A stretch of DNA of 64,000 nucleotides from a virus, in the IMG/VR virus record IMGVR_UViG_3300021420_000014, one strand, 5' to 3'. A model generated the notes under the pieces. The model did no database searches. It was not told the origin of the DNA and saw only the letters and a program-made list of their open reading frames with translations. The position numbers and the translations under genes were made by a program. Shown here one piece after another: positions 39,180 to 58,411 of this stretch (the stretch's first letter is position 1; each line of letters begins with the position of its first letter).

Positions 39180-39652
39180 GCCGGCACGGTCGTGCCACGA
39201 TTCCCATAGGCCAATACAAAGGCAGTAAGGTAGCTGCACTACCAGACCAATATTTACTTTGGCTTCTTGAATCCGTCTATGCCAGCAGTCCGAAATGGCA
39301 TTGGCTTATAGAAAGTGTCAAAGCAGAACTGCGCCATCGAGGCTTTCATCCAGACAATGTTGTGCCGGAACCGCCACCTACGTTCAGGATACGGTGCACA
39401 AATTGCGCCCAGCTTTTCGAATCAACCTACCAGCGTCCTGTTTGCGACTCATGCAAGGCTATTATCAGAAGCGGACTTACGACGATCGGTGCTACGCAAA
39501 AATGTGTTCACTGCGGTCACTATCTGCATCCGGATGTGGATTGCAGAGCCCTGGATGCAGCCGGCGATGTTTGTAATTGCTCTAATTCTGAGCCGATTGG
39601 CCTGCCCAAAGTGGCAGACTTTGTGAAGCCGCGGCGTGTGATTTTGCTCTAA
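39176..39652 (+). CDS. DUF3820-like domain + zinc ribbons, C-terminal KPRRVIL tag
   Basis: IPIGQYKG..LPDQYLLWL; CxxC pairs. Confidence 0.65.
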   Translation: MSRHGRATIPIGQYKGSKVAALPDQYLLWLLESVYASSPKWHWLIESVKAELRHRGFHPDNVVPEPPPTFRIRCTNCAQLFESTYQRPVCDSCKAIIRSGLTTIGATQKCVHCGHYLHPDVDCRALDAAGDVCNCSNSEPIGLPKVADFVKPRRVILL

Positions 39653-39667
39653 TAACATTGGCATTAT

Positions 39668-39697
39668 TTGACTTATCTTATGGTTTACCCATACACT
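39668..39697 (+). promoter_or_regulatory. sigma70-type promoter (TTGACT-N18-TACACT)
   Basis: 8 nt before ATG 39706, so near-leaderless. Confidence 0.45.
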
Positions 39698-39705
39698 CCA
39701 GTTAC

Positions 39706-39927
39706 ATGTCTGGTAATAACGGCCCCAAGCCGCTTTTCTCTGCGGAAGACCGCAAAAAAATTATCAATCTTTTATTGTCCGAAAGTATCAACGCAGCGGC
39801 GATCGGCAAACGCTTCGGTGTTTCTGCTCAGACCATTCGGCGCATCCACTGGGAATATCTTTTAACCAACGACAAGCGCATTGCAGATAACGGAGATGTT
39901 CGAAATGGCAGCCAAAAACGCAAATGA
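39706..39927 (+). CDS. small HTH protein
   Basis: NAAAIGKRFGVSAQTIRRI. Confidence 0.6.
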   Translation: MSGNNGPKPLFSAEDRKKIINLLLSESINAAAIGKRFGVSAQTIRRIHWEYLLTNDKRIADNGDVRNGSQKRK

Positions 39928-40537
39928 TTCATTGCTCTCTGACATTGATTTTGAGCCCATCGAGGATATTAAGCCGGACAGAAACAATCCCAACAGGCAT
40001 ACGCCGCGCGGCAAAAAACTTTTGAAGTCTTCACTCAAAAAGTTTGGGGCCGGCCGATCGATATTGCTCGATGCTGAGAATCGCGTGATCTCCGGGAATG
40101 CCACCTTTGAGCAGGCCAGACAGTTGGGCTACAAAAAAGTCATGGTGGTGGACTCTGATGGCGATACGCTGGTTGCCGTACGTCGGAAAGATCTCAATCT
40201 TGAAGGTGACGACAAGAAGGCTAGAGAACTGGCAGCCCATGACAACAGAGTTGGGCAGGTTGACCTGGAATGGGACACCGACATCTTGAAGAGTACGGAC
40301 GTCGACCTAACGGAACTATTTGAACCAATCGAGTTGGACAATCTTCTGAACGACGGCAAGGGCAGAAAGCGAATCGACAAAATCGATCTGCAGCCTCCTC
40401 CCAAGATGATTTGGATCCTTTTGGGCGTTCCATTCAATCGTTTCGATGAAATTCAGCCACACTATCAGGCACTCGAAGCTATCAGCGATATCAGTGTTCA
40501 GCAGGCAAGGAACGCAGAGGAAGAAAAGAAATCTTGA
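39905..40537 (+). CDS. ParB/Srx-like N-terminal domain protein
   Basis: IKPDRNNPNRH..SLKKFGAGRSILLD..ISGN..DNRVG. Confidence 0.75.
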   Translation: MAAKNANDSLLSDIDFEPIEDIKPDRNNPNRHTPRGKKLLKSSLKKFGAGRSILLDAENRVISGNATFEQARQLGYKKVMVVDSDGDTLVAVRRKDLNLEGDDKKARELAAHDNRVGQVDLEWDTDILKSTDVDLTELFEPIELDNLLNDGKGRKRIDKIDLQPPPKMIWILLGVPFNRFDEIQPHYQALEAISDISVQQARNAEEEKKS

Positions 40538-40836
40538 GCGTATATGTCGATGCATCGCTTTATCCACTTGGTCGCATGATCATGTGTCATTTGTTTGCTG
40601 ACACTACGGACGAGCTCAATCGGATGGCAGATGCGATCGGCATCGCCCGCAAGTGGATACAGTATCCCGGTACGCCGAAAGAACATTTCGATATTTCTAA
40701 GTCTAAGCGGGCCTTGGCCATCATGAATGGCGCAATCGAATTAACTTCCGCACGCTCATTGATCGCCATTATTCGCAGGAAAGCTAAGGCATACTCCCTT
40801 CCGTCCGAAGTAACCTTGCCAATCAGCGGTTATTAA
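40534..40836 (+). CDS. DUF4031 protein
   Basis: VYVD..MCHLFADTTDEL..HFDISKSKRALAI. Confidence 0.8.
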   Translation: MSVYVDASLYPLGRMIMCHLFADTTDELNRMADAIGIARKWIQYPGTPKEHFDISKSKRALAIMNGAIELTSARSLIAIIRRKAKAYSLPSEVTLPISGY

Positions 40837-40839
40837 TAG

Positions 40840-40868
40840 TTGACATATCGTACCTACTAAGCTATAAT
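40840..40868 (+). promoter_or_regulatory. consensus sigma70 promoter TTGACA-N17-TATAAT
   Basis: Perfect hexamers; spacer TATCGTACCTACTAAGC related to other promoters here. Confidence 0.9.
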
Positions 40869-40923
40869 GTTGCTGTTAGTGCAAGACCGATCTAAGCACT
40901 AACAAAACTGAGAGGGAGTTCTA

Positions 40924-41253
40924 ATGGGCAATCAAACTACGGTGATCATTCGTAACGATGCAATTGGTGATATCCGCAGAAACCCAGAGGAATTCGTCAA
41001 GACGCTCGCAGAAATGATTGAGCACGGAAGAACTGGAGACTTTGCCGTATTCAGTCACGGCAACCCCGCGCAGGTTATCGAAACTCATCATGCTGACTAC
41101 ACTGTGATCGTCGCGGCTGGCGGCAACACCGCGCGTGTGATTGGCCATGTTTACAAGTGGCATTGGCCAGACAAAATCGCGATGGTGAAGGACGTCATTT
41201 CAAGTATTCATGAATGGCTCGCTGGCCAAATGGACAAAAATGCCACAGCATAA
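40924..41253 (+). CDS. hypothetical protein
   Basis: GAGGGAG SD; first gene after promoter. Confidence 0.6.
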   Translation: MGNQTTVIIRNDAIGDIRRNPEEFVKTLAEMIEHGRTGDFAVFSHGNPAQVIETHHADYTVIVAAGGNTARVIGHVYKWHWPDKIAMVKDVISSIHEWLAGQMDKNATA

Positions 41254-41488
41254 GTCAGTACCGTGCCCTGCCTGCTATGGCCGCGGCAACCTTGGATGCT
41301 GGTTATGCAGTGGAAGCGGCCGTCATGTCACGCAAGCGGATCACAAATACGTTAACGGTTGGGCAGTCATCGGTTACGCTCTTGCGCTGCTCATCATCGT
41401 AGCTGCCGTAGTTATTTATTTGCCGCTGATGGGAGATTGGTTGATTCAACGGTAGTGCCGACCGCGAACGGCGCAAGGGAGAATCGAC

Positions 41489-41821
41489 GTGAATCCTGGC
41501 GTGATCATGACTCTGGTGTGGATGCTGCTAGGGTTGCTGTGGGTATGGATGCAAGACCGAAAAGAGATGCGGAAGCACGTTCCTTACGGCAACATGCCGA
41601 GTATCTTCAGCTTGAAACAAATCCGGACCATGCTGTACACAATGGGAATGATGGTCTGTGCGCCGCTCGCAATTATCGGGCCACCATTGCAAATTTATAT
41701 TACGATTCGACGGGCACTCTTGGTCAGAGAACTCAAGAAGCTGCGCCGCGACACCACAAACGGGCGCTGGATGTACGTTAACATGAGGCGCTTTATGCTA
41801 CGGGATAAGAAGGCCAAATAA
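41489..41821 (+). CDS. membrane hypothetical protein
   Basis: GGGGAG SD + GTG; two hydrophobic segments. Confidence 0.45.
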   Translation: MNPGVIMTLVWMLLGLLWVWMQDRKEMRKHVPYGNMPSIFSLKQIRTMLYTMGMMVCAPLAIIGPPLQIYITIRRALLVRELKKLRRDTTNGRWMYVNMRRFMLRDKKAK

Positions 41822-41872
41822 CGGCAGCGATTAGCCGCAAATAAATCGCAAAACCAAAAGGGAGAATCAAAA

Positions 41873-43459
41873 ATGCAAACTTCGTTTTTAGAGCGTTTTC
41901 GTGCTGCTCGTAGAGTTAGTACCCCGCTCATTGCAATTCGCACGGCGGATCCTGCCGCAACGGTCGCCGATATCGCCAGAGATAAGGCTCAGGTTGCGGC
42001 CATGATCCTGTGGGATTCCGTCTCAGGCATAGTGGGCGTCAACGAACCGGACGGTAAAAACGTCGTCCGGCAACTGGTAAAACCAAACCGTGACCGTGAT
42101 AACGATGAAGATCGTCTGGAAGATCCTTTGGCTTTCCTTGTGAAGATAGCTGCGAAGGAAGCAACCCCGAGAGGCACTATAATCTTTGCATACAACCTGA
42201 ATCTCTTCTTTAACGATCATCGCGTCATACAGGCGGTTTGGAACCTTCGCGATAAACTCAAACAGGAAAATAAGACTTTGGTCCTGCTTTGCCCGTCCAT
42301 CACTTTGCCTCCGCAGCTGGCGCAAGATGTATTGATTCTGGACGAACCACTTCCGGACGCGGCTGGCCTGGCAGCTATTGTGGGCGAAATGTATTTGGCA
42401 GGAAATCTTCCATCGCCGAAACAGGAAATCCTTGAACGTGCCGTCGAAGCACTCTCCGGCCTCGCAGCTTTTCCCGCAGAGCAGGTTACGGCCATGAGCA
42501 TCACCGAAAAGGGCCTTGATATTGAAAGCTTATGGGAACGCAAACGCCAGCAAATCGAAATGACGCCTGGCCTGAGCATCTGGCGCGGCAAGGATGACTT
42601 CAAGAGCGTTGTCGGGCTCGATAACGCCAAGGAATTTCATCGCCGTCGCGGCATGGGGCCTTTGCGGCGTCGCACCATCGTATTCATTGACGAGATCGAC
42701 AAGCATATGTCCAATTTTGGCGCGATCGGCACCGGAGATACCACAACCGAAATGGTTGGCACTCTTCTGACAGACATGGAAGAAACCGAAGCAGAAGGGA
42801 GTGCGTTCCTCGGCGTCGCTGGAGCCGGCAAAACATTACTTGCTAAAGCGATTGCCAATGAGTGGGGGGTCCCGTTGATCTTCTTCGATCTGGCCGGCAT
42901 GAAAGCTTCGCACGTCGGCCAATCGGGCGAGAACATTCGCAATGCCCTGAAGGTGGTCCATGCCGTAAGTCAGGATCAGGTGTACTACATCTGTACGTGT
43001 AATAGATTCGATTCGTTGCCGCCGGAGATGCGACGCAGGTTTAGATCTGGCACGTTCTTTTTCGATCTGCCGACCAAACCGGAAAAAGAGGCGGCTTGGA
43101 AAATCTACCAGGAGAAATACAAGATAGAGGGACCGCGGCCAGACGATTTAGGCTGGACCGCTGCAGAAATCCGCAATTGCTGCTATAACGCGCATGTCTT
43201 GGCATGTCCGCTAGTGGACGCGGCCAAGTATATCGTGCCCATTTCCGTTTCCTCTGCGGATAAGATCAAGGATCTTAGACGACAGGCAGATGGAAACTTT
43301 ATTTCTGCCACCTACTCCGGTCTATATCATGCGCCGGAAGGTATCGAACCTGAGCCAGTACCAGATATGGTTGTAGCGATCGGAGTCATTCCAGCCAAGC
43401 CGAGACGCAAGATCATGCCTGAACCTGGTAACGGCGGCAAAAAAGAGCAGGTGAATTAA
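41873..43459 (+). CDS. Ycf46-like AAA+ ATPase with permuted Walker B/Walker A order
   Basis: IVFIDEIDK at 42677 precedes GVAGAGKT at 42812; TCN..LPPEMRRRF..FFFDLP; C-terminal KPRRKI. Confidence 0.85.
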   Translation: MQTSFLERFRAARRVSTPLIAIRTADPAATVADIARDKAQVAAMILWDSVSGIVGVNEPDGKNVVRQLVKPNRDRDNDEDRLEDPLAFLVKIAAKEATPRGTIIFAYNLNLFFNDHRVIQAVWNLRDKLKQENKTLVLLCPSITLPPQLAQDVLILDEPLPDAAGLAAIVGEMYLAGNLPSPKQEILERAVEALSGLAAFPAEQVTAMSITEKGLDIESLWERKRQQIEMTPGLSIWRGKDDFKSVVGLDNAKEFHRRRGMGPLRRRTIVFIDEIDKHMSNFGAIGTGDTTTEMVGTLLTDMEETEAEGSAFLGVAGAGKTLLAKAIANEWGVPLIFFDLAGMKASHVGQSGENIRNALKVVHAVSQDQVYYICTCNRFDSLPPEMRRRFRSGTFFFDLPTKPEKEAAWKIYQEKYKIEGPRPDDLGWTAAEIRNCCYNAHVLACPLVDAAKYIVPISVSSADKIKDLRRQADGNFISATYSGLYHAPEGIEPEPVPDMVVAIGVIPAKPRRKIMPEPGNGGKKEQVN

Positions 43460-43755
43460 TGGCGCGCGCGTTCCTTCATCAATGGGAAGTTCGGAGCCAT
43501 ACAGGTGATGATGTTTATAAGGTGACCGAGTACTTAGACGGCACATGGGCCTGCGCATGTCCACGGTGGAAGTTTTGCAAAGCCCCAAAACTGGATTGTA
43601 AACATATCCTTGGCGTCAAGGCCGAAGAACCACATCAGGCAATGCCGATCACGCAGATGCAGGAACAGGCACGGCGACAGATGATACGGCCACCTGAGCC
43701 TACATCGCATCCCGTGTTTGTTTTGCAAACTCGTCGTGTCATTCAATTGGGTTGA
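43459..43755 (+). CDS. SWIM zinc-finger protein 1
   Basis: YKV..WACACP..CKHI; ends QTRRVIQLG. Confidence 0.8.
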   Translation: MARAFLHQWEVRSHTGDDVYKVTEYLDGTWACACPRWKFCKAPKLDCKHILGVKAEEPHQAMPITQMQEQARRQMIRPPEPTSHPVFVLQTRRVIQLG

Positions 43756-43761
43756 CCAAAA

Positions 43762-44142
43762 ATGATTACAAAAGCGTGGAGGTATCCGAACGGCACGATT
43801 GAATTTGGTATTGTAACTCTTCGTGGCCCAGCCAATTTAGTTCGCGCTAACCAAGATGGTACTTGGCAATGCGATTGCTCAGGCGATCCACCAAAAATCT
43901 GGACACCGACCGCAAAGTTCGGTCCAGGTCATCCTTGGATAAAGCCGGCGTGTGAACACATTGCGGAGGCGTTTGTGCATCACCGGAAAGGAGAAGGCAG
44001 GAGAGAACAACTCACAGCGGAAGCTAAGCACAGCGCGGAAGTAAAGAAACAGTATGACGAGGAAATGAAGATCAGACGTGAAAAAGACGACACACCGATG
44101 GCGGAATTACGGCCAAGAAGAAAAATCACATTCGACAAATGA
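43762..44142 (+). CDS. SWIM zinc-finger protein 2
   Basis: WQCDC..CEHI; ends LRPRRKITFDK. Confidence 0.7.
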   Translation: MITKAWRYPNGTIEFGIVTLRGPANLVRANQDGTWQCDCSGDPPKIWTPTAKFGPGHPWIKPACEHIAEAFVHHRKGEGRREQLTAEAKHSAEVKKQYDEEMKIRREKDDTPMAELRPRRKITFDK

Positions 44143-44158
44143 AAGAGAGGGTAGCTAT

Positions 44159-44563
44159 ACGAGTCACACCTCGGACATAGAATTAGAAGTCACGGACATC
44201 AACTGCCTAGAGGATGCCGTAAAAAGCATCCCTGGGCTGGAATTCCTGCGCGGCCAAAAAACGTTCAAGCAGTTTGGTGGCCAGCAAGGTCGCTGCGATC
44301 ATGCAATTCGCGTAGCAAATAACAGCCGTGCGTTTGAAATAGGGGTCTCCGAGACAGGCAGGCCTGGTCGCCACAGATTGCAAACCGATTTTTATGGTGG
44401 CGGTTACGGGCTCGAAGAACTTGTTGGTCCAAACGCTAACAAACTGAAGCAAGCATACACCGTCGCCTATTCCAAGAAGCAATGGAAGAAGAAAGGCTTC
44501 AAGGTTCGAACAACGGTCGACGCGCAAGGCTTTATCGACGTCATAGCCACGCGACGAACATAA
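44159..44563 (+). CDS. DUF1257/Ycf35-like protein (proposed ACG start)
   Basis: (M)SHTSDIELEVTDINCLEDAV..LKQAY..GF; GAGGG SD before ACG. Confidence 0.75.
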   Translation, partial: TSHTSDIELEVTDINCLEDAVKSIPGLEFLRGQKTFKQFGGQQGRCDHAIRVANNSRAFEIGVSETGRPGRHRLQTDFYGGGYGLEELVGPNANKLKQAYTVAYSKKQWKKKGFKVRTTVDAQGFIDVIATRRT

Positions 44564-44581
44564 GTTGCGAGGTGACTTAAG

Positions 44582-44965
44582 TTGGTCTACACAATTTCTC
44601 CGCTTGAGTTCGGCGAACGCCGCGATATCCGCGGGAGACGCATTCCTATCTATGTAGATGCCGATGGGCAGATAGGATGGACGCTTTGTAGCGGTGGAGC
44701 AGCGTTTCGTGTTTTGCGCACTGCCGATCACATGTGGATTTGCAATTGTCCGAACGGACAGGTGAACGGTCGTCGAATAGTTGGCGATCCAGTATGCGAT
44801 CACATAACGACGGTTCCTCAGAGTCCTGCGTACGCAAATAGTGAATATCTAAATCAGCTCGACGGTCTGATTCGAACTGAACAACAGATCGTCTCTCGAA
44901 ATGAGGCACGAAAGGAACGAGAAGAATACGTTCTACGGCCACGACGAATAATAAATCTCAAATAA
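44582..44965 (+). CDS. SWIM zinc-finger protein 3
   Basis: WICNCP..CDHI; ends LRPRRIINLK; GAGGTG SD + TTG. Confidence 0.7.
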   Translation: MVYTISPLEFGERRDIRGRRIPIYVDADGQIGWTLCSGGAAFRVLRTADHMWICNCPNGQVNGRRIVGDPVCDHITTVPQSPAYANSEYLNQLDGLIRTEQQIVSRNEARKEREEYVLRPRRIINLK

Positions 44966-44974
44966 GGAGATCAC

Positions 44975-45169
44975 ATGGCAGAGGAAATCGTACGAATCCG
45001 CGTTTCGCCCGAAGGCAACGCGACTATCAGCGTCAAGGGCGTGAAGGGAAGATCATGCAAGGAACTCACAAAGACTTTTGAAGAAGGCCTTGGAAAGGTG
45101 GTGAGCAGTGAAAACACAAGCGAAATGTATGAAAAAGAAACAGAGGTTCAGATTAAGAATAGGGCCTGA
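44975..45169 (+). CDS. DUF2997 protein
   Basis: IRVSPEGNATISVKGVKGRSCKELTKTFEEGLG..TSEMY. Confidence 0.85.
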   Translation: MAEEIVRIRVSPEGNATISVKGVKGRSCKELTKTFEEGLGKVVSSENTSEMYEKETEVQIKNRA

Positions 45170-45174
45170 CGCGG

Positions 45175-45508
45175 ATGCCTACTAAGCCAGTATTAGTTTG
45201 TTGACCTTAGACCAAAACGCTGCGACGAACTCATCCAAGGTTACCTAACGGCTGTTGGCCATACCTGCGATACGCCATTGTGCATTCAGCCTGAGCACCT
45301 TATTGAAGGTACTCAGAAGGAAAATATACATGATTGTGTAGTACGCGGGCGGGCCAGGAACGGCAACATTAAATTAACTCCAGAGAAGTGGGACGCAATT
45401 AGAAAATCGACAAAATCTCACACAGCCATAGCCAAAGAATACGGAATCAGTCGTCACCAAGTCGGCAGAATAAAGCGAGGAGAAAGCGGGAGGGTTTATA
45501 ACCCATGA
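45175..45508 (+). pseudogene. truncated/frameshifted HNH endonuclease
   Basis: HTCDTPLCIQPEHLIEGTQKEN + HTH; in-frame TAG at 45194; ATG 45175 is out of frame. Confidence 0.55.
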
Positions 45509-45777
45509 CTACGTATCGTATGCGCATCGCTCCGAATGGAAAGATCTTTGCACTCTACGATGACATCTTGGCCGATCTATTCCCTGACAGCCAAATGACT
45601 ATCAAGCGGGCTAGCTTCGTTGAGCCCACGCCATCCGGCCGATGGATTGCAGACATGTCGCCAGCGGTCAAGCGATTCAACTTGAACGTCGATAACCCGA
45701 TATTAGGACCTTTCACCACTAGATCGGCAGCGCTAGCTGCCGAACATAAGTGGTTGTTAGCCAAGTTGTTTACATGA
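45505..45777 (+). CDS. small conserved protein of AAA/DUF1257/DUF2997 clusters
   Basis: IKRASFVEP..GRWIADMSP..LGPFTTRSAALAAE. Confidence 0.65.
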   Translation: MTTYRMRIAPNGKIFALYDDILADLFPDSQMTIKRASFVEPTPSGRWIADMSPAVKRFNLNVDNPILGPFTTRSAALAAEHKWLLAKLFT

Positions 45778-45874
45778 TTTCGCGTGAGCGAAACGGCGGA
45801 CACAACCAAATCCGATCTGAAGCCCAGGCCCCAAGGTAGTGTCCGCCGATTTGAAGCAAAAGGGAGAATCAAAA

Positions 45875-46957
45875 ATGAGATCAGCACAACGTAGTGCAAT
45901 CCAGAAGTCAGCAGCACAGAAGGCTTGGGAGACTCGCAAGAGGAACCGCAGCAATCCGCCACTGCCGCCAAAAAAGACAATTAAACTGCAACCATTGCCG
46001 GCGATCAAATTGCCGACGAATCCGGAACTTGTTTCGCCCGATCAGATCATGGCGCGCACCTGCGTTATGGTCCTCACTTTCCATGGCATCGGCAATCGCC
46101 GCAAGGTGGACACTGACAACATAGAAGTCAAGTCAAGTGACAAGCGCGCCGCAGCCAAAGAAAGCGAAGTGGACAAGGCGTGGTTACACCTGACGAAGCG
46201 GCTGATCGAAGCGGAAGAACTAGACAAGATCACGTCCAGCTACGGTGAGATGCGCCGGTACGTTGAGAACTTGGCTTTGCCGTCGTACATTAAGCGCGGC
46301 GTATACATCATGCCGACCGCATTCGTGATGCAAGTGGACGCCAAACTCAAGGAAGGCACTGCGACCGTTCAACCATTCATCAAATCGCTCGGCAAACGCT
46401 ACGAAGCCATCAAAGCAGAATCTCAAAAGAGGCTCGGTCCCCAATATAACGAGGCCGACTACATGACCAGAGAACAACTGATGGCTGCCTTTCAAGTGTC
46501 GTGGCGGTTCCTTTACGTGGATAGCGCACCGAACTTGGCCGGTGTATCAAAGGAAATCTACGAAGAGGAACGCCGAAAAGCGCAGCAAGATTGGGCAGAT
46601 CTCGCCCAAGTTCACAGACAGATGCTTCGCAGCCACATGTCGGAGTTCGTCAATCACTTGGCAGATAGGCTTGCGCCCAACGAAGAAGGCCGGCTCAAAA
46701 TGTTCAAAGAAGGCTCTGTCACGAAGTTCCAGCAGTTTTTGGAAAACTTCGAGCCACGCAATATCGGCAACGATCTTCAAATGAAGGTTCTTGTCGATCG
46801 GGCAAAACAGTTGCTCACCGGCAACGACGCCGAGTCTTTGCGAACCAACGACGAACTGCGGGCACATGTAAGGCAAGGTTTTGAAAACATCAAAGCCGCC
46901 CTAGACACGATGGTTGTTTTGAAACCGCGACGGATCATTACATTTGACAGATCGTAG
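45875..46957 (+). CDS. DUF3150-like helical protein with C-terminal KPRRIITF tag
   Basis: CAAAAGGGAGAATCAAAAATG start context; ALP..GVYIMP, YNEADY; cluster context. Confidence 0.65.
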   Translation: MRSAQRSAIQKSAAQKAWETRKRNRSNPPLPPKKTIKLQPLPAIKLPTNPELVSPDQIMARTCVMVLTFHGIGNRRKVDTDNIEVKSSDKRAAAKESEVDKAWLHLTKRLIEAEELDKITSSYGEMRRYVENLALPSYIKRGVYIMPTAFVMQVDAKLKEGTATVQPFIKSLGKRYEAIKAESQKRLGPQYNEADYMTREQLMAAFQVSWRFLYVDSAPNLAGVSKEIYEEERRKAQQDWADLAQVHRQMLRSHMSEFVNHLADRLAPNEEGRLKMFKEGSVTKFQQFLENFEPRNIGNDLQMKVLVDRAKQLLTGNDAESLRTNDELRAHVRQGFENIKAALDTMVVLKPRRIITFDRS

Positions 46958-46988: not shown

Positions 46989-47369
46989 ATGAGAAAGCCG
47001 GAGCCATTTGCCAAAGTAAAAGTGGGGCCGGGCCAACCGGCCCCGCGGCGTTTTAAGACACTGGTGGATGGCAGTGAATTGGTTGCTTTGTACAACGAGT
47101 CGAATACGATGTGGGACATTTATCTGGATGGCTATCGAATCGGATATGTCAAACACAGAATGGAGTGGCTGGCACTCCTTCAGTTGGGGGCACGATTTAA
47201 TCATCGCGTGATTGGCAAATTTGTGCGATGGCAGGATGCGGTCAATCACGTAATCACCACATTTCTGGCTCATCGGGCAAATTGGTCGGCCAGTAAGGCT
47301 CACCTATTTTTTAGCAAGGCTGTGAAGTTAGAAGATGTCGAGCAGGAACAGGTACCGCGACGCCGCTAA
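46989..47369 (+). CDS. hypothetical protein
   Basis: First ORF after promoter. Confidence 0.5.
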   Translation: MRKPEPFAKVKVGPGQPAPRRFKTLVDGSELVALYNESNTMWDIYLDGYRIGYVKHRMEWLALLQLGARFNHRVIGKFVRWQDAVNHVITTFLAHRANWSASKAHLFFSKAVKLEDVEQEQVPRRR

Positions 47370-47391
47370 GTTCGCAAAAGGGAGAATCGAA

Positions 47392-48249
47392 ATGGGAGCG
47401 CATACCGTTTGGAAGGGACATTTGTCTTTCGGCTTGTTGAATATCCCGGTACGGTTGTACGTAGGAGCCCGGGACAAACGCGTTGAACTGCATACCTATC
47501 ACACCAAATGCAATGGTCCGGTCAAAGAACCGAAGTATTGCAACGCCTGCCAAGAGATGCTGGCTCCGGAACAAATCTACAAGGGCTATGCAATCGACGG
47601 GAAGATCGTTCAGATTACCAAAGAAGAGATCGAACAGCTTACGCCAAGCAGCGGAAAAGTGTTGGAGATTACAGAATGCGTCAAGTGGGCCGACGTCGAC
47701 CCACTCTATCTGGCCGAATCCTTTTATTTACTGCCAGAAGATGTCGGCCGCAAAGCCTACGGTCTCCTCGTCAAGACGCTCACCGATACTGGCCGTGTCG
47801 CCATTGCTCAACTAGCCAAGTCAGGCAGGGAGAACGTAATTCTCTTGCGGCCCAAAGGCAATGGGCTGATCGTTCATTACATTTGGTATCCGACAGAGAT
47901 TGCAAGACTCGCTGAATTCGAAGATCTGGAAGCGGTCGCGTTCACAGCGTCCGAACTGAAATTGGCACGACAACTGGCCGAAAGTTTCGATTCCGAATTC
48001 AATCCCGAGATATTCGAAGATGGCTACTACATGCGCTTAACTCAATTGATCGAATCCAAGCTGGACAAGTCGGTCCAGGCACCGCAAGCGGTCAATGTTG
48101 CAGTCGCTCCTCCGGCCCAAGATCTCATGGCCGCGCTGTCTGCTTCACTCGCTACTCCCAAGCCGCGTCGGTCGATCAAGTTGAATGCTGAGCCAGAGCC
48201 GGCGAAAGTTGCTGAAAAAACCAAGGGCAAGAAAGGCAAGGCGGCCTAA
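47392..48249 (+). CDS. ku: Ku DNA end-binding protein
   Basis: WKGHLSFGLLNIPVRLY..KGY..YLLP..DLMAALSASL. Confidence 0.92.
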   Translation: MGAHTVWKGHLSFGLLNIPVRLYVGARDKRVELHTYHTKCNGPVKEPKYCNACQEMLAPEQIYKGYAIDGKIVQITKEEIEQLTPSSGKVLEITECVKWADVDPLYLAESFYLLPEDVGRKAYGLLVKTLTDTGRVAIAQLAKSGRENVILLRPKGNGLIVHYIWYPTEIARLAEFEDLEAVAFTASELKLARQLAESFDSEFNPEIFEDGYYMRLTQLIESKLDKSVQAPQAVNVAVAPPAQDLMAALSASLATPKPRRSIKLNAEPEPAKVAEKTKGKKGKAA

Positions 48250-49433
48250 TGAGTCATTATGCGGTCCTAGTTATAGGTGACGATCCTGAAGGGCAGTTGG
48301 CTCCATTCCATAAGTTTGAGAGTACTGGCGACGATAACCAGTACGTTCAAAACATAGATCAAACCGAAGAGGCTCGCGCTCAATACACTGAGCACACCAC
48401 CACGCGATACCGTGATCCAGAGGGAATACTTCACAATCCTTATACAGAAGAAGGTAATGCCAAGCCACAGTTTTGGCGCGATCCAACGCCAGAAGAGATA
48501 GCGGAGCACGGCAAAATGTTTGGCTCTGGCTTTGGCGGTGGTATCCGCTGGCTTTCAACAGATTGGAACGACGGCCTGGGCTACCGTGCCAAAGTTTTCC
48601 AATTGCCGGAGGGCTGGAATGAAGTTGAGGTTCCGACTCCCGAAGCAGAGACACTCGCCAAGTTTGTTGAAGGCTGGTATGGCCATAAAGTTGTTCCCTT
48701 TGGCGAACAGCCTGACCTGGTTGGCAAACACAAATACGGCTACACGCTGGTAGATTCGGGCGGCACAGTCGTGAAAGTTGTTGATCGCACAAACCCAAAC
48801 AAAAAATGGGATTGGTATTCGGTAGGTGGCCGCTGGACCGGCTATTTCAAATTGAAAGCGGTTGGCGTTGGCGTCCTGGGCAAACCAGGAATCCAAGCAA
48901 TAGCTTCAGATTACAAAGCACCTGAGAGAGACCGCGCCGATCTGTGCCGGAAATGCGACATAGACATCGAGGGAATGCGCAATGAAGCAGAAGAAAAGGC
49001 AGCAAGAAAATACGATCTAGTGTGGTCGATCATAGGAGCACACCAGCGTCCTCTAACCTGGGAGGAAGTAAAAAAACTTCATCAAAACGGTGTCGATGGG
49101 AAAGGTAGACCTAACGTCGATTTTGACGCCGCTAGAAAATACTACAATCAGCAACCTGCGGTAGTCGCGCTTCGTGAAAACGAAACGGCAACATGGTATG
49201 AGGTGGACGACTTTCTGGTAGCGCGTGAAGAGTATTTGCGCCGAGCACGCGCCGGGGCTCTGACGACGTTTGCAGTCATCAAAGATGGCCAGTGGTACGA
49301 GCGAGGCAGCATGGGCTGGTGGGGAGTCGTCTCGAACGAGGAAGACCACGACGAATGGAATATCAAGTTCGCGTCTCTGATCGATGGACTGCCAGACGAT
49401 ACGATTCTAACGATTATTGATTGCCATATCTAA
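48249..49433 (+). CDS. conserved phage hypothetical protein
   Basis: MSHYAVLVI..NPNKKWDWYSVGGRW..IDCHI. Confidence 0.7.
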   Translation: MSHYAVLVIGDDPEGQLAPFHKFESTGDDNQYVQNIDQTEEARAQYTEHTTTRYRDPEGILHNPYTEEGNAKPQFWRDPTPEEIAEHGKMFGSGFGGGIRWLSTDWNDGLGYRAKVFQLPEGWNEVEVPTPEAETLAKFVEGWYGHKVVPFGEQPDLVGKHKYGYTLVDSGGTVVKVVDRTNPNKKWDWYSVGGRWTGYFKLKAVGVGVLGKPGIQAIASDYKAPERDRADLCRKCDIDIEGMRNEAEEKAARKYDLVWSIIGAHQRPLTWEEVKKLHQNGVDGKGRPNVDFDAARKYYNQQPAVVALRENETATWYEVDDFLVAREEYLRRARAGALTTFAVIKDGQWYERGSMGWWGVVSNEEDHDEWNIKFASLIDGLPDDTILTIIDCHI

Positions 49434-51835: not shown

Positions 51836-52114
51836 ATGAGTTGGAGGGTTCCAAAAAAGTGTTCAAACTGCCCCTTCCGTACTAGTGGCATAGGCCTTCA
51901 TTTGCGCCGTTCGCTTCGCCCGGGCCGGTGGCGCGGGATCCTTGACGGACTTAGGCGCGGAGAAGCTTTTGAATGCCACAAGACCGTAGCGCACAACGAA
52001 GATGGCGATTCAGTTGCCGGCACAGGCTTGATGTGCGCTGGTGCGATCGAATGGCTCGACCGCCATAGCATATCGAATCAATTTGTGCGGATCATGGAGC
52101 GGATTCATGGATGA
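51836..52114 (+). CDS. DUF6283-like Cys/His protein
   Basis: CSNCPFR..FECHKT..MCAG. Confidence 0.6.
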   Translation: MSWRVPKKCSNCPFRTSGIGLHLRRSLRPGRWRGILDGLRRGEAFECHKTVAHNEDGDSVAGTGLMCAGAIEWLDRHSISNQFVRIMERIHG

Positions 52115-53795
52115 ACTAATCCTCAAGAAGATCCTGTCCGAGCATGAGTTCAAGCTGTATTTGGAAGCCGTAACTGGTCACACAACCGATGCCATTAAGG
52201 GCACGGCGGCCTACGACTACATTCACGAAAAAGCTGACCTTCATAAAGTGGAAGAGGACCCGCGCTATCTAGGTGCGCATCGAGAGCCTGACGGCGCGTT
52301 GCTGCTCTTCACCGATGGTTCTAGTTCGTTGATAAAAACGCATCATCACATTGAATTCAAGCCTTCCGGTCGTGGGAAAGCAAGGATTCCGCCGAATCCT
52401 GATTATCCAAACGGTCGAAGGCTAGATGTTACTGAAGGACAAGAAGCTAGTTGCTATGTGAATCTGCCTTATCCGGCTCCAGAGTGTGGCATATGGATAG
52501 TCGAATGCGGCAAATGCAGAACCAATGCTGCGGTCACTGCCGCAGGTCGGCCTGACGATCCGATCAGCATTAAGATTCCGTGTAAAAAAGATAGTCATAG
52601 TCAAGGTACGTATCGTAGAGCCGATGGTGTGTTGGGCGAACGATTGGTCTTCAAAGCAGGATTCGACGTGCCTGACGACGATCATGCTGCCTTGGTTCCG
52701 AAAGCAGTAGCATACGACAAAAAAGGAAAAGGAATGATTATCGACCGACTCATCTACGACTACCGATACGATGCCGTACTGACAATCAAGCTGATGCAGA
52801 CCATGGATGACAAGGCATCGCAACAGGAAGCAGCCGTTAAGGCGCACATGCAGCACAAATATGCGGATTCCTTGGAATCGTCGGTGCGATATTGGCTCGA
52901 CGTGCGTGAAATAGAAAAGTTCAGGACCGTGAAGATTCGGTGGAAACACTTTCCGCCTTGCATCCACGATCAAATGTTCATTGAATTCAACGGAGAGCTG
53001 AAGTTTGATTTTCGACCATGGAAACGCCCAGATATTTTTGTGTCGGAGACCGAACAAAATCTAAAGCCTGCACCGCTAGTATTGGCTCCCTATAGTCTGC
53101 CAGATACGACTTATCGTGCCGTGCATATCCAAAGGAACTTACCACCGCATAAATTTTTTGGATGGCCTGAAGACAAACCGGTAATTCGCGCCACATGGTA
53201 TGAAAAACCGATGTGGATTAAGCATCCTGAACTTGGCGATATACCCGCTATAGACAACTATGTCGTCACGCTTTGCGAGTCCGTCTGGCCTAAAAGGTTG
53301 GACGTTTTCAAAGTTGGCGATCCAGATGAGATTGCCCACCCAGGCGAAAGAGCACACGCGGATCGGCTGATGTTTATGACAGCCAATCTCATGTACTTCT
53401 TGGCCGCTGAGAATATCGTCAAGGTTCGGATTCGGCCAGAACATCACGAACGCTGCGGACGCGAGCTCTCCGGGCTTCCAAAATCCGACAAGCCATACTA
53501 TGTTCTGCCGTTTCAGTTGCCGCGCTATAGGTACCTACACCGTGACGATGAGAAGCCAAATGGAACCACCGGCCGGCATGTGAGCGTTTGCTTTGATGTC
53601 CGCGGCCACTTCCGACATTTAGATGCCCAACGATTCGAGCGTGACGCCAACGGCAATGTGCGCGTAATTTGGATCGGCGGTCACCAGCGCGGCTTAGGCC
53701 ACGTTTACCGGCCGACTGTCCGGCGAGGATTGATAAGCCATTTATTTCTAGATTATGACAAATTTATCGCTCAGGAGACAAAGCGTGCTAGGTAA
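52107..53795 (+). CDS. large multidomain hypothetical protein
   Basis: C-terminal VRGHFRHL..IWIGGHQRG motif. Confidence 0.6.
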   Translation: MDELILKKILSEHEFKLYLEAVTGHTTDAIKGTAAYDYIHEKADLHKVEEDPRYLGAHREPDGALLLFTDGSSSLIKTHHHIEFKPSGRGKARIPPNPDYPNGRRLDVTEGQEASCYVNLPYPAPECGIWIVECGKCRTNAAVTAAGRPDDPISIKIPCKKDSHSQGTYRRADGVLGERLVFKAGFDVPDDDHAALVPKAVAYDKKGKGMIIDRLIYDYRYDAVLTIKLMQTMDDKASQQEAAVKAHMQHKYADSLESSVRYWLDVREIEKFRTVKIRWKHFPPCIHDQMFIEFNGELKFDFRPWKRPDIFVSETEQNLKPAPLVLAPYSLPDTTYRAVHIQRNLPPHKFFGWPEDKPVIRATWYEKPMWIKHPELGDIPAIDNYVVTLCESVWPKRLDVFKVGDPDEIAHPGERAHADRLMFMTANLMYFLAAENIVKVRIRPEHHERCGRELSGLPKSDKPYYVLPFQLPRYRYLHRDDEKPNGTTGRHVSVCFDVRGHFRHLDAQRFERDANGNVRVIWIGGHQRGLGHVYRPTVRRGLISHLFLDYDKFIAQETKRAR

Positions 53796-54009
53796 GCACG
53801 AATATCTGAAACGGCGCAAAGAACTAAAGCGAGAATTGCGCGCGGCTAAAAAAGAACAGCGTCGTCTTAATAAAGAGCTCCAAAGGTTGGATGCTGAATT
53901 AGACGCAGCGGCAGCAAAATTGGGCGATGCCATTGTAGACGAAGGCAAAGTCGTACTGCTTGACGGTGGATCGTCGCTCGTTGCCAGACATAAACCTGTC
54001 AAACCGTAG

Positions 54010-54038
54010 TTGACATACCGTACCTACCACGATATAAT
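54010..54038 (+). promoter_or_regulatory. consensus sigma70 promoter TTGACA-N17-TATAAT
   Basis: Spacer TACCGTACCTACCACGA related to 40840. Confidence 0.9.
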
Positions 54039-54076
54039 AATAGAACTAGCAGTCAATTCTCAAAAGGGAGAATCTT

Positions 54077-54823
54077 ATGCTCAAAAAGTTTAAGCCGTTG
54101 GCGCATTCCGATGAATTTGGCTATGCCTACGATTCTCAGGCCATGGATTTCAATGCTCCGTTTTTAGATCACTTCCGTATCTACCACACCTACGGTCACG
54201 ATCTGGTTCAGCATTCACCGGACTGGTCTGTGACCGTCGATCAGGCAGCTGATTATCTCGCATCACTCGCCGAGGCCATGAAAGACGATCAGGAATTGCT
54301 TGAGGCCGTGCGGTTCCATATTTCGCGCCGGCCAAGCAGGAAAGAGATCGAATTCGCCGCATCGATCAAGTGGAAAGAGGATTCGAAGGTCCGCTATTTC
54401 TCGGTCGCCGAACAGAGAATCTCATCCTCTGACAGCAAACGCCACGACAAGCGGTATCAAGAAATCGGATCTCAGTGCGACGGCACTGCCCAATCGATCT
54501 TTCGCATTTTGGTCCGAGAATACGCCGCTGGCTTAGAGCGTTATTGTTATGCCCACGCCATACGTGAATGGTGCCTTGAAAACGGCAGCAATGATGATCG
54601 GCCATACATGCAGTTGCCTGGCCTATTCATGAATTGGTTCAAATCACCTGCCGGTCGTGACAAACGCGAGGAAGCGCAGCGGATTAATGATGGCTACGAA
54701 GCGTGCTGGTATTTAGTCCAGGCTTCCTACAATCGTGCGGCAGCGGAAGCTGCCATAAGAAACTACCAAAATAAACTGCACAAGACGGAACCTACACCGG
54801 AATCGTCATGCTCCGCAGAGTGA
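54077..54823 (+). CDS. hypothetical early protein
   Basis: CAAAAGGGAGAATC SD context after promoter. Confidence 0.65.
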   Translation: MLKKFKPLAHSDEFGYAYDSQAMDFNAPFLDHFRIYHTYGHDLVQHSPDWSVTVDQAADYLASLAEAMKDDQELLEAVRFHISRRPSRKEIEFAASIKWKEDSKVRYFSVAEQRISSSDSKRHDKRYQEIGSQCDGTAQSIFRILVREYAAGLERYCYAHAIREWCLENGSNDDRPYMQLPGLFMNWFKSPAGRDKREEAQRINDGYEACWYLVQASYNRAAAEAAIRNYQNKLHKTEPTPESSCSAE

Positions 54824-54990
54824 TCGGGCAGGTGATTTGGTACTTTGTGGCTGACCGCGTTGAACAATTGGCTTGCGCTTGCAATCGCGATCTAATTGAC
54901 GAGGATGACTTGCAAAGTGAGCTTCGGGATGTTCGGCACGATATACGGCTAGTTGATCGCCGCGTCGATGAACTTGAGGGCGAAGTATAG

Positions 54991-55530
54991 ATGGTCCAAA
55001 CGCTGTTCGGCACAATTGAGAACAAGGCCGAGGCCCGGGAGCGCGCCCAAAAGATGGCCGAGCTATATGACGCGCTGCGTGAGGCTCCGGAAGCACTCGA
55101 TTGCCGACGGGTACAGATTGGGGACCTGACTTACTTCATCGAACGCAGCAACGCTTGCAAGCTGGACTTAAACGACCATGATGGCCTGCATCGCCTGATT
55201 GGAGATCCAGAAGAATTAATAACGGCTCGCGACTGCGCCTTCATGCGCCGACACAAACGCTGGTGGCGTAAAACACCAAAAGGCTACCTGGGATATTCAG
55301 CTGCGATCTATTGCGCGACACTTCACCCAAAGGAAATCAAGTATCTCGAAGATCAACGGATATGGATTCAGGACGAGATTGACTCAATCGAAACAAATGT
55401 CCCGATCATTCGCGAACAGGTAAAAGCTTTGAAGGCTGTAGCACCACTGCCGGAAGATATTGCCAAACGGCACGGCCTGACTGTAGATGGCGATCCACTG
55501 AAACCAATCGAGGAGAAAGCAAAATGTTAA
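54991..55530 (+). CDS. hypothetical protein
   Basis: GAGGG SD; 179 aa. Confidence 0.5.
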   Translation: MVQTLFGTIENKAEARERAQKMAELYDALREAPEALDCRRVQIGDLTYFIERSNACKLDLNDHDGLHRLIGDPEELITARDCAFMRRHKRWWRKTPKGYLGYSAAIYCATLHPKEIKYLEDQRIWIQDEIDSIETNVPIIREQVKALKAVAPLPEDIAKRHGLTVDGDPLKPIEEKAKC

Positions 55531-55850
55531 GATTTGGGACCCAATCAATCGACATAGGAAAGCTGACCGAAGATGAAACCGCGGACCTGTTCATAGCTGC
55601 GGCTAAATCCCTTAGAGAAGAAAGGCTGTTGGAGTCGTTCGATCTGATTCTGACCACAAAGCAAAAAGAAGAGTTGGGCGAGACATGGTTCAACATCGAT
55701 TCTGGACCACGATGAAGCGCCAATGCCGATTCTGTAAAGAACGGACTGGCGCGATCACTTGTTTTCGTATTCCGACAAGAAATAGCAATCCTTTTATTTA
55801 TGCTCACGAAAAATGCTTCCGGCAATGGCTTGAGGCTTGCTTAGCCAAAC

Positions 55851-56672
55851 TTGAACAACGGTAGCCTGCCGAGAAAAGGCAAAGGGAGAATAAAAATACG
55901 CCGAATCATTAAAAATCGATGCCCACACTGCGGCCGTATTCGCGGCACTGGCCATACATGTCCCACATTCAACTGGCGATTCAAAGACCTAACAGGCAGG
56001 AGATTCTCTAGGCTTACCGTAATATCTTTAGCCAAAGAGAAAAGGCGCAATCAATTAACGTGGGTATGCGTGTGCACGTGCGGCAACAAGATCATCGTTA
56101 CCACTGGAGATCTAAAAACTGGCAACACTAGAAGCTGTGGATGCATAAGGCATAAAAACATAGCTGGCGAACGCTTCGGATTATTGATTGCGATAAAACG
56201 CGATGGTTACATCCGGAGGCACAAGGCTTGGTTGTGCAAATGCGACTGTGGCAACGAAACGCGTGTTCCATACGGCCGTCTTACTGCCAGAGCGGTAATT
56301 AGCTGTGGCTGTCAGAGAGGTGGCCACAATAGACTTCCTAATCATCTAGCACGCAGGCGAAGAATTTTTTACCACTATCATAGATGGAGTGCACGGCTAG
56401 GAAGGCCGTTCCGCCTTAGCTTTAGGCAAGTAGACCGCCTTATTAAAAAGTCTTGCTATTACTGCGGCCACAAAACCGATGTTTCATCCGGACACTTTAA
56501 TGGCATAGATCGAGTAGATAACACCATCGGATACGTTGCTGCAAATGTGGTGCCATGTTGTTGGCAATGCAATCGAATGAAAGGCAAGTTGTCACACGAC
56601 GACTTCATCGCGCGGTGTATTCAGATAAATAAATTACACAAGGGAGAATTAAATGAAATCAATAATACTTGA
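55851..56672 (+). CDS. HNH endonuclease with CxCxCG/SCGC repeats (start TTG 55851 or ATA 55896)
   Basis: DLTGRRFSRL..WVCVCTCG..SCGC twice; CYYCG..GIDRVDN..PCCWQCN. Confidence 0.75.
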   Translation: MNNGSLPRKGKGRIKIRRIIKNRCPHCGRIRGTGHTCPTFNWRFKDLTGRRFSRLTVISLAKEKRRNQLTWVCVCTCGNKIIVTTGDLKTGNTRSCGCIRHKNIAGERFGLLIAIKRDGYIRRHKAWLCKCDCGNETRVPYGRLTARAVISCGCQRGGHNRLPNHLARRRRIFYHYHRWSARLGRPFRLSFRQVDRLIKKSCYYCGHKTDVSSGHFNGIDRVDNTIGYVAANVVPCCWQCNRMKGKLSHDDFIARCIQINKLHKGELNEINNT

Positions 56673-57747
56673 GTATTCAGATTTAGGCGTTGGTGGATCA
56701 AGTCATAAAGAATATAGGATCCACCTGCAGAAGGCACAAGACGGCTACTCGATAACATTTGAATTCGGCAGACTTGGTTCAACACTTCAGACAGGTAGTA
56801 AAGCCCAATCGGTCCCTCTTGATGAAGCGGAACATATTTTCGACCGTCTGGTTGCCGACAAGATGCGCAATGGCTATCAGCCAGTCAAGAACGGCTCGGC
56901 CCAGGCCCCAGTGCCGGTGCCTATCGCCGCGCTTGGTGCGCGCACGCCCTTTCCAGCTGAACTGCTCGAAGAGATCACCGAAGAACAACTTGCCACCTAC
57001 ATGGAAAGAGAAGATTACTGGATAGAACTCAAGGCAAACGGGCAGCGCCGCCAAGTCCAAAAACTCGGTCCAGGCAAGTACACTGGCTTCAACAAATTGG
57101 GCACGTCTGTCGCGCTCCCTGCTCCATTGGTCAACGATCTGGAGAGGTTCGACGCCAAGACGTTCTTTATCGACGGCGAGCTCATCGGGGACGACCTGAT
57201 CGTTTACGACCTACTGGAGATCAACGGCAAAAATATCTCTATGCTTCCCTATCGGGACCGCTGCGAACATCGCGCCAAACTTATTCCACGCAAACAGCAG
57301 CGGTCGCACGTGGAAATTATCTCTACATGGAAAACGAAGATGCAAAAACGCATCGGCTTCCGTAGCGTCCAAGAAGCCAGAGCGGAAGGCATCGTGGCGA
57401 AATTCATTCATGCCGTTTACCAAGGCGGCCGACGAGGAGATCACAAAAAATTCAAATTCACCAAGATGGCTACCTTCAAAGTGATTCGCGTCGGAGACAA
57501 GGGCCACAACAGTGCGACCGTCGCGTTACTCGACAATGGCAAATGGCGCGAGATGGGCCGTGCCAGCTTAATTGGAAAGGATAAGAGAATCTGTACCGGC
57601 TCATTGGTTGAAATTCGTTTCCTTTACGTGCAGGGCGAGAACGGCCGGCTTTACCAGCCGCGAATCATCGGGCTACGAACGGACGTCAATGAAAGCGAGT
57701 GTACGATGGCGCAATTAAAAGTAGCCTACAAAGGTGCTGTGTCCTGA
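56653..57747 (+). CDS. ATP-dependent DNA ligase with N-terminal WGR domain
   Basis: FGRLG (WGR); ELKANG, IDGEL, YDLL, EGIVAK, KFK ligase motifs; C-terminal OB-like region. Confidence 0.85.
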   Translation: MKSIILEYSDLGVGGSSHKEYRIHLQKAQDGYSITFEFGRLGSTLQTGSKAQSVPLDEAEHIFDRLVADKMRNGYQPVKNGSAQAPVPVPIAALGARTPFPAELLEEITEEQLATYMEREDYWIELKANGQRRQVQKLGPGKYTGFNKLGTSVALPAPLVNDLERFDAKTFFIDGELIGDDLIVYDLLEINGKNISMLPYRDRCEHRAKLIPRKQQRSHVEIISTWKTKMQKRIGFRSVQEARAEGIVAKFIHAVYQGGRRGDHKKFKFTKMATFKVIRVGDKGHNSATVALLDNGKWREMGRASLIGKDKRICTGSLVEIRFLYVQGENGRLYQPRIIGLRTDVNESECTMAQLKVAYKGAVS

Positions 57748-58171
57748 TGCTCGTTATTTTCACAAACGGCAACATCGAATACTACTTCGAGCGGCGTCGC
57801 TACGGCAGCCGAGCCTTCTTCACTTGGCTGAACTATCGGGTGAAGCCTAACACGGCCTGGAAGAGCTTCGGCGATCCGTGGCCCAAACAACATCTAAGCC
57901 GAGCGGAGTTACAGTCCGCATTGGCTGAGATCTCAAAGAAGGCGGAGGCAAAAGCGAATGATATCTGACAAGAAGTACATTGCGGCAGCACGTAGGCTGT
58001 ACAACGAGGAAGGGACCATCGAAGTGGACGAAGACAGCGGACAACTGCCCAAGGGCAGAGTGAGCCGCGGAGAAGATGCCGGTGCCTATGTCATGGCCTG
58101 GGTTTGGGTGCCAGCACACGAGGCCAAAAAAGAAGTGGCCAAGAAAACGCTAGTAAGACGCTAGGCCGAAC

Positions 58172-58411
58172 ATGGAGACGGCCAAACGCAAACGCAAACT
58201 GGTTGAGGCTCAGGAGATGGTCAAGGCCACGCTCAAGCGTATCCGTCGCCTGAATACGTCGCTCAAGAATTGGGAGCGGCGCGCCAAGATGCATGAGAAG
58301 GCACTGGCAGCAGAGGAAATTGCAGCATTGCACCGTAGGATCGCGGAGCTAGAACTGCGGCCACGGCGAATCATACAATTCGAGAAAACGGAGACTAAAA
58401 ATGATGGGTGA
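58172..58411 (+). CDS. small coiled-coil protein with RPRRIIQF tag
   Basis: Heptad-rich helix then ELRPRRIIQFE. Confidence 0.6.
   Translation: METAKRKRKLVEAQEMVKATLKRIRRLNTSLKNWERRAKMHEKALAAEEIAALHRRIAELELRPRRIIQFEKTETKNDG

Follow-up and report, generated by a model that had tools for sequence, protein, structure and literature searches.

Why should otherwise unrelated proteins of one phage end in the same short peptide? The question is raised by a 64,000-nucleotide stretch (the window) of the IMG/VR record IMGVR_UViG_3300021420_000014, obtained by reverse-complementing positions 32760-96759 of this 164,879-bp record from an uncultured phage. Nine otherwise unrelated proteins of this phage bear the same tail peptide, among them two members of a gene module that comprises a Cdc48/p97-like tandem AAA+ ATPase, a DUF1257-like protein, a DUF2997 protein, a protein of 90 amino acids (aa; p90) and a DUF3150 protein. 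It is established that the peptide is a module-linked, protein-level and lineage-variable C-terminal tag, native to the ATPase and DUF3150 families. It probably serves as a module-linked docking tag. The best overall explanation, to which a probability of about 0.5 is assigned, is that it recruits client proteins to the ATPase by way of adaptors encoded in the module itself.

A tail peptide on nine phage proteins

In a six-frame scan, the + strand holds seven copies of PRRxI and one of TRRVI, each 6-27 residues before the stop of a long open reading frame; all eight lie no more than 30 residues from the C-terminus and inside 19 kb. The other nine six-frame matches to [PT]RRxI in the whole genome fall 2-16 codons past a stop, and no further plausible gene of the 164,879 bp carries the pattern. 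Among 286 C-terminal tails of 30 aa, eight match, compared with a mean of 0.34 and a maximum of 3 in 500 composition-preserving shuffles per tail, and the 44,214 non-tail residues hold no match. When the eight tag-coding DNA stretches are aligned, they agree at first and second codon positions alone: third positions diverge and arginine is encoded by both CGN and AGA. This pattern indicates selection on the peptide and not a DNA repeat, as the original prediction made for this locus from the letters had proposed.

The eight copies named in that prediction are all found where it placed them, and it was also right that the genes at 1-38 kb hold no full copy. A 650-aa ATPase in this region (32707-34659, tail ...SRRIIEEAGRGMVRAATILFD, with weak TrwB, AAA_10 and terminase-like matches) was considered as a carrier and rejected: its SRRIIEE near the end belongs to a conserved family segment (ARKLIISEGRGLVRA in locus L005) and is therefore a look-alike. 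A ninth carrier, the large terminase, had been overlooked because it lies outside the window; a looser scan revealed GGRRIIDL at its end. With a terminase among them, the carriers are not confined to early proteins. The same scan yielded a further, unconfirmed candidate, a 298-aa protein ending in FRRRITLPP.

The motif core, initially given as (K/R)PRR, has to be redrawn. Its actual invariant part is one arginine with hydrophobic residues at +2 and +4; acidic residues usually come next, and Lys/Arg-Pro often precedes. In the loose form R-x-[IFLVM]-x-[LFVM]-(D/E), it is a family-wide C-terminal signature of the tandem AAA+ ATPase and of DUF3150. The tag has several properties of a short linear motif: it occurs on unrelated folds and above chance, is kept in orthologues, and lies in a disordered tail outside the folded domain in AlphaFold2 models of DUF3150 and the ATPase.

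Conservation extends well beyond this genome. In a related phage (G001, locus L003) whose ATPase is 72% identical to that of the window, the orthologues keep the tag on all eight carriers and the terminase with slightly altered spelling (PRRAISLD, QTRRLIHLD, RPKRKITLE, NPKRKINLEED, QPKRRITFD and RPRRLIHLE directly before the stop; GRRKID and KPRRTIKLD in the other two), and two further proteins are tagged. Its terminase (L213:6149-9052), 967 aa long with an intein (Hint_2 and Intein_splicing matches), ends in GGRRAIDLRK. Inteins also occur in two ATPase homologues, P0077 and P0098. Nearly all DUF3150 homologues (26-75% identity) end in KP-x-R-x-I-x-[LF]-[DE]-[DE], the anchor arginine being aligned in 138 of 149 sequences. 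The ATPase family counts at least 1,370 matches to the N-terminal 300 residues; Arg512 of the tail is invariant in a 109-sequence alignment of homologues, and unsupervised expectation-maximisation on the tails past the conserved FISAS..G.Y motif recovers [GK]-R-x-[FIM]. The ATPase copies are systematically weaker than those of clients, often without the second hydrophobic residue and the acidic residues. The proposed tie to an AAA+/DUF1257/DUF2997 cluster holds: in more than 130 independent loci, the tail signature marks the ATPase and DUF3150 families of this module. A DUF3150-pattern scan of the genome contigs returned no matches.

Among cultured phages, Tunturiibacter phage Tunturi_3 (L002, PP885686.1) has the module, and its DUF3150 homologue gp96 ends in PDRKFHLEGEEF. 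This protein is annotated as 'HNH endonuclease', a label that appears to be wrong.

The ATPase module and its partners

Loci were sampled with an ATPase profile and comprise 80 from IMG/VR and the best 80 of 442 bacterial matches; the latter are mostly from Acidobacteriota, with some from Nitrospirales, Armatimonadota, Planctomycetota and others. The module is present in hundreds of phages, in prophages (mainly of Acidobacteriota) and on one plasmid. At viral loci with full flanks, the DUF1257-like and the DUF3150 genes are each found in 52/54 cases; the corresponding bacterial figures are 44/48 and 45/48. To this core of ATPase, DUF1257-like and DUF3150 proteins, DUF2997, p90 and SWIM proteins are frequent additions. 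Tagging differs by family: 96 of 124 DUF3150 and 15 of 18 SWIM proteins are tagged, as are two of 61 DUF1257-like, none of 30 DUF2997 and none of 25 p90 proteins. Searches with PADLOC and NCBIfam detected no known defence or named system at the module.

Table 1. Carriers of the tag and untagged module members in the phage genome. Positions are those of the window unless a contig is named; 'end' marks a tail that runs to the stop codon.
Protein	Length (aa)	Coordinates	Strand	Tag, position and context	Orthologue tails	Basis
QSregVF_b (former DUF3820)-like, Cys-rich C-terminal half	158	39176..39652	+	KPRRVILL, 39626-39649 (FVKPRRVILL end)	ARPRRAISLD end (72% relative)	Pfam PF12843, E=6e-5, 23.2 bits vs cut-off 22
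AAA+ ATPase, Cdc48/p97-like tandem	528	41873..43459	+	KPRRKIMP, 43397-43420 (PAKPRRKIMPE), disordered tail, Gly-rich end after		Pfam AAA
SWIM-like zinc-finger protein 1	98	43459..43755	+	QTRRVIQL, 43726-43749 (LQTRRVIQLG end)	QTRRLIHLD end, QTRRRIVFED end, QTRRAICL, KTRRAIRLED end	C-x-C...C-x-H signature
SWIM-like protein 2	126	43762..44142	+	RPRRKITF, 44110-44133 (LRPRRKITFDK end)	RPKRKITLE end, KKRKITLKD end, AKRKIRIQEE end, KPKRRIKFVD end	C-x-C...C-x-H signature
DUF1257-like, core member, candidate reader	~134	44159..44563	+	untagged		homology to MSHV... proteins
SWIM-like protein 3	127	44582..44965	+	RPRRIINL, 44936-44959 (LRPRRIINLK end)	NPKRKINLEED end	C-x-C...C-x-H signature
DUF2997 protein, core member	64	44975..45169	+	untagged		Pfam PF11211, E=1e-15, 57.8 bits vs cut-off 24.1
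p90, no known family	90	45505..45777	+	untagged		orthologues in many module loci
DUF3150-like protein	372	45839..46957	+	KPRRIITF, 46922-46945 (LKPRRIITFDRS end)		homologues carry PF11348
Ku	304	47335..48249	+	KPRRSIKL, 48160-48183, 27 aa from end, between conserved C-terminal helix and Lys-rich end		Pfam Ku PF02735, E=5e-35; TIGR02772, E=6e-66, 222 bits vs cut-off 150
Coiled-coil protein	79	58172..58411	+	RPRRIIQF, 58358-58381 (LRPRRIIQFEK)	VRPRRLIHLE end, GRPRRGIRLEP end	tag
Large terminase, outside window	599	G000:C1:2435-4234 (L210:436-2235)		GGRRIIDL at end (PIGGRRIIDLHKYR end)		Terminase_6C

The ATPase appears to be an unfoldase of the tandem-ring type, in which the first domain is degenerate and the N-domain is missing. 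Its AlphaFold2 monomer model (predicted local distance difference test score, pLDDT, 92) has its best Foldseek matches in the D1-D2 domains of p97, Cdc48 and Rix7 (E ~1e-12, probability 1.00, ~570-595 alignment columns). In this tandem D1-D2 fold, residues 1-230 form a degenerate D1-like domain and residues ~240-480 the active one; the D1-like alpha/beta domain comes first in the model, and the N-terminal double-psi-barrel cofactor-binding domain is absent. In the family consensus (window 42590-43080), a Walker-B-like IVFIDEIEK (~268-277) precedes the Walker A motif GPPGxAKS (~314-321), and the strand past Walker A resembles sensor 1 (LFIATCN). The tail beyond residue 490 has pLDDT 48-66, with no docking in cis in the monomer model.

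An unfoldase of this kind, lacking the N-domain, needs some means of client recognition, and the main rival to recruitment through adaptors is that the ATPase ring reads the tag directly. The tag would then be a substrate handle for the unfoldase, comparable to ssrA for ClpX or the C-terminus of MuA, on Ku, the terminase, DUF3150 and SWIM proteins, and the weaker copy on the ATPase a pseudo-substrate or an inter-ring contact. Both the Cdc48/p97-like fold without N-domain and the systematic weakness of the ATPase copies speak for it, as does mycobacteriophage Firecracker, in which the ATPase is the one component in common: its distant ATPase ends in KVRVLDL and a neighbouring protein in GRAIDFE...YALDFEEVV. 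However, the ATPase's own tail, poorly ordered in the monomer model, is not docked in cis there, and the near-universal untagged DUF1257-like partner would be left without a role. Direct reading is considered rather unlikely.

The assignment of the DUF3150-like protein relies on its homologues, several of which (P0014, P0021-24) match PF11348; its own only Pfam match is a weak one to DUF7181. The AlphaFold2 model of DUF3150 is helical with a small sheet, and its last 16 residues (345-360) form a coil that follows the final helix. Foldseek found no match in the Protein Data Bank (PDB) at E <= 0.001, and a wide VIA-align search returned only generic helical bundles (Z <8). The C-x-C-x(n)-C-x-H pattern of the SWIM zinc finger (PF04434) is visible in all three SWIM-like proteins; Pfam scores SWIM-like protein 1 alone, below threshold (15.3 bits vs 19.6, E=0.015).

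The DUF1257-like protein of the window has no match to PF06868 (DUF1257/Ycf35), which its homologues P0193 and P0220 reach with 32.8 and 27 bits and that of locus L035 narrowly misses (21.2 vs cut-off 22.2). The family is large, with 4,955 representative clusters at 50% identity in an exhaustive profile search. Its reading frame in the window is open from a GTG at 44078 and lacks an ATG where the conserved MSHV begins; the probable start is an ACG at 44159, within ...GAGAGGGTAGCTAT-ACG-AGT-CAC and with a Shine-Dalgarno sequence, GAGGG, 7 nucleotides ahead. In orthologues, the first codon is ATG, GTG or one for Ile (ISHV), and L096 reads YTSHV. To judge from these codons, weak starts may keep the protein scarce. 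In three cases (P0251, P0258, P0283), the DUF1257-like protein is fused to DUF2997, and such single-polypeptide fusions imply that the two act as one unit. Apart from these, the exhaustive fusion search returned one probable gene-call fusion with an endonuclease; neither in that search nor in one of longer proteins was a fusion of the DUF1257-like protein to the ATPase or DUF3150 found. A separate count found no tag on any of 22 p90 proteins. The p90 protein has matches in the ESM Atlas to unnamed viral clusters alone, and PDB profile searches with the DUF1257-like, DUF2997 and p90 alignments gave nothing significant.

The plasmid instance bears on another possible role of the tag, that of a portal- or prohead-binding tail which would direct its carriers to the vertex used for packaging or to the capsid interior. 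The large terminase is tagged at its C-terminus in this phage and its relative, and terminase C-termini of lambda, T3 and T7 bind the portal. The tag is, however, native to the ATPase and DUF3150 families and not to terminases, its carriers are encoded in the DNA-metabolism region, and the tagged module is found on a 199-kb Candidatus Manganitrophus plasmid. This plasmid encodes the AAA+, DUF1257, DUF2997 and DUF3150 proteins, with the tails RRLRGG and PKRKIRIL and with DUF1257 and DUF3150 annotated as such, and has no match to Terminase_6C, Terminase_6N, Phage_capsid or Phage_portal. A portal-docking function is thus very improbable.

The acidobacterial metagenome-assembled genome MFD05580.bin.1.127 carries a copy of the module on each of four contigs (L134, L138, L141, L150), with near-identical tags (ATPase RVMRDL/RVIRDL, DUF3150 RKFRFDEA), which points to a set of related prophages or elements within a single genome.

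Tag spelling and candidate readers

Each lineage has its own spelling of the tag, and the clients that have received copies differ from lineage to lineage. Within one element, the ATPase and DUF3150 tails resemble each other, as in RSYGGD/RLYGDD, RKMRD/RKFRDE, and RAFRGME or RVMRDL with RKFRFDE. In the phage studied here, the tag has been copied onto the SWIM-like proteins, Ku, the QSregVF_b-like protein, the coiled-coil protein and the large terminase. The phage Ku has the bacterial Ku beta-barrel core domain; L003, L037 and L048 retain its tag, and L034 and L041-43 have a degenerate form.

These spellings bear on the possibility that the reader is a host protein, such as a protease adaptor site of the ClpX N-domain type, a sliding clamp or another hub, in which case the tag would be a degron or a recruitment motif. 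The ClpX N-domain binds basic-hydrophobic C-terminal peptides, reading the XB tail LRVVK of SspB; the carriers are DNA-transaction proteins, and the phage encodes a clamp-loader-like AAA+ protein (58800-59753, DNA_pol3_delta2 match). The spelling nevertheless varies among related elements in the same host phylum and is common within each element, for which an element-encoded partner is a better fit than a conserved host protein. Moreover, clamp-binding motifs begin with a Gln that is missing from the tag, and the tag is always linked to the module. A host reader is accordingly held to be improbable.

It has also to be considered that there is no separate reader, and that the tails are self-complementary beta-strands that bind one another, with Arg facing the acidic end and Ile/Leu packed, zipping the carriers together. 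The presence of the same peptide on every partner, ATPase included, its alternating pattern, basic at the start and acidic at the end, and the co-variation of spellings within an element would all be expected. An 8-residue strand broken by Pro would give little affinity, though, the acidic end is missing from many ATPase copies, and there is neither repeat nor amyloid-like composition. Such pairing seems decidedly unlikely. Within-element co-variation, peptide composition and the plasmid instance make the host hub, the tail pairing and the portal the less likely candidates.

With a family-wide tail signature in the ATPase module, all carriers are most likely addressed to one common partner. 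According to the preferred explanation, docking through module-encoded adaptors, the tails would bind one reader encoded in the module, probably as an added beta-strand. The likeliest candidate would be the untagged DUF1257-like/DUF2997 pair, with or without p90, as an adaptor platform; this assignment is tentative and in itself doubtful. The six tails of an ATPase hexamer and those of the clients would meet on the platform, and DNA-end proteins such as Ku and the terminase would thus reach the unfoldase, to be remodelled or taken off DNA. A complex prediction for the DUF1257-like protein, DUF2997 and p90 with the C-terminal 40 residues of DUF3150, in which every chain had a separate alignment, scored 0.00, which speaks neither for nor against binding. 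In a contrast-based coupling analysis, 7 independent sister pairs differ at tag position +3 and 12 at +2; with pairs so few and so divergent (about half of all columns), no column of a candidate reader stands out.

Several observations weigh against this explanation. The ATPase is itself tagged, which fits a separate hub but equally self-recognition. The concordance of a basic residue at +3 between ATPase and DUF3150 tails, 84 of 97 distinct pairs, counts in favour but is inflated by shared ancestry, and identity at +2 amounts to 31/97 where 24 are expected. With a loose regular expression, 91 tagged non-core proteins are counted in the 160 loci against 88 expected; in the absence of a general excess, client copying is lineage-specific and seen in a few lineages only. 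The generic expression is too loose for this purpose, and lineage-specific spellings are needed. Firecracker has tag-like tails, yet no recognisable DUF1257 or DUF2997. Finally, lineages with a short DUF1257-like protein swap the canonical DUF2997 for a His-rich protein, and their tags persist. In these lineages (L037, L048/L050, L069, L074, L077), the DUF1257-like protein is reduced to the C-terminal half of ~60 aa and a ~70-aa protein with a His-rich tail (HGHVHHHDHDH...) takes the place of DUF2997; judged by its composition, it may be a metal-binding variant of the DUF1257/DUF2997 pair.

As for the genomic setting, the 164,879-bp record has direct terminal repeats. In the window, nearly every gene is on the + strand, with structural genes at ~1-28 kb followed by DNA-metabolism genes. 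An untagged ATP-dependent DNA ligase with an N-terminal WGR domain (56653-57747), kept near Ku in several relatives, forms with Ku a phage-encoded end-joining kit. The phrog_10079 protein (48249-49433) was rejected as a tag-linked protein: its relatives occur in 29 other phage loci without tagged neighbours.

Relation to known systems

Short C-terminal peptides that address an AAA+ unfoldase and unrelated proteins to one partner ring are known from proteasome activators, which dock by means of HbYX (Hydrophobic-Tyr-X) tails in PAN, Rpt and Cdc48 and of a GQYL sequence common to mycobacterial Mpa and Bpa. These motifs are located at the extreme C-terminus, whereas the phage tags have no Tyr in any of the nine carriers and lie 6-27 residues from the end. 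The partner there is 20S-like and none is known here, and the clients that have acquired a copy of the phage tag vary. Basic-hydrophobic motifs in flexible tails also tether adaptors and clients to unfoldases in the case of SspB and the ClpX N-domain, of VBM, VIM and SHP motifs and the p97 N-domain, and of the MuA C-terminus. The phage ATPase differs in having no such accessory domain, its residues 1-230 being the degenerate D1, and in being tagged itself.

Sliding-clamp tails (QL[SD]LF/QLxLxL; gp43, gp33 and gp55 for gp45 in T4) likewise place alternate hydrophobic residues on several phage DNA-transaction proteins. The clamp motif, however, needs Gln at position 1, while the phage tag has an invariant Arg with acidic residues after it and is linked to the AAA+/DUF1257/DUF3150 module, and the phage genome has no match to DNA_pol3_beta (PF00712).

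In gene neighbourhood, the module resembles Ycf46 (AAA+), Ycf35 (DUF1257) and DUF2997 of cyanobacteria and plastids, where DUF2997 and DUF1257-type proteins occur beside a ~500-aa AAA+ protein. The genes for DUF2997 and ycf35 adjoin in cyanobacteria (PMC4284462). DUF3150, SWIM proteins and Ku are additions to this context in mobile elements. A literature search found no functional study of DUF3150, DUF2997, DUF1257, Ycf46 or Ycf35, and no published description of the shared tail tag.

In eukaryotes, p97/VCP extracts Ku from DNA, since Ku rings need active removal from joined DNA. In the phage, a Cdc48-type ATPase and Ku likewise share one functional context, and the parallel is suggestive as an analogy. 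Recognition in eukaryotes is by ubiquitin and Ufd1-Npl4, in place of which an encoded tail would act here. It is conceivable, if rather doubtful, that viruses and plasmids encode a Cdc48-like segregase with a portable tag in the place of ubiquitin, its clients Ku, terminase and SWIM fingers being stripped from or loaded onto DNA ends during circularisation and packaging. Any protein that gained the 8-residue tail would then become a client, a corollary open to the same doubt.

Going by the sizes of the ATPase and DUF1257-like families, the five-gene module occurs in thousands of phage, prophage and plasmid lineages; the shared tail offers a directly testable handle on it and predicts clients genome by genome. 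Cultured entry points exist in Tunturiibacter phage Tunturi_3 (gp96 to gp103) and possibly in cluster O mycobacteriophages (Firecracker gp99-gp100). As the tag is short, transferable and lineage-variable, discovery of its reader might allow its use for orthogonal recruitment. Ku and the terminase as predicted clients point to unfoldase control of DNA ends, which to our knowledge has so far been described only for eukaryotic p97 and Ku.

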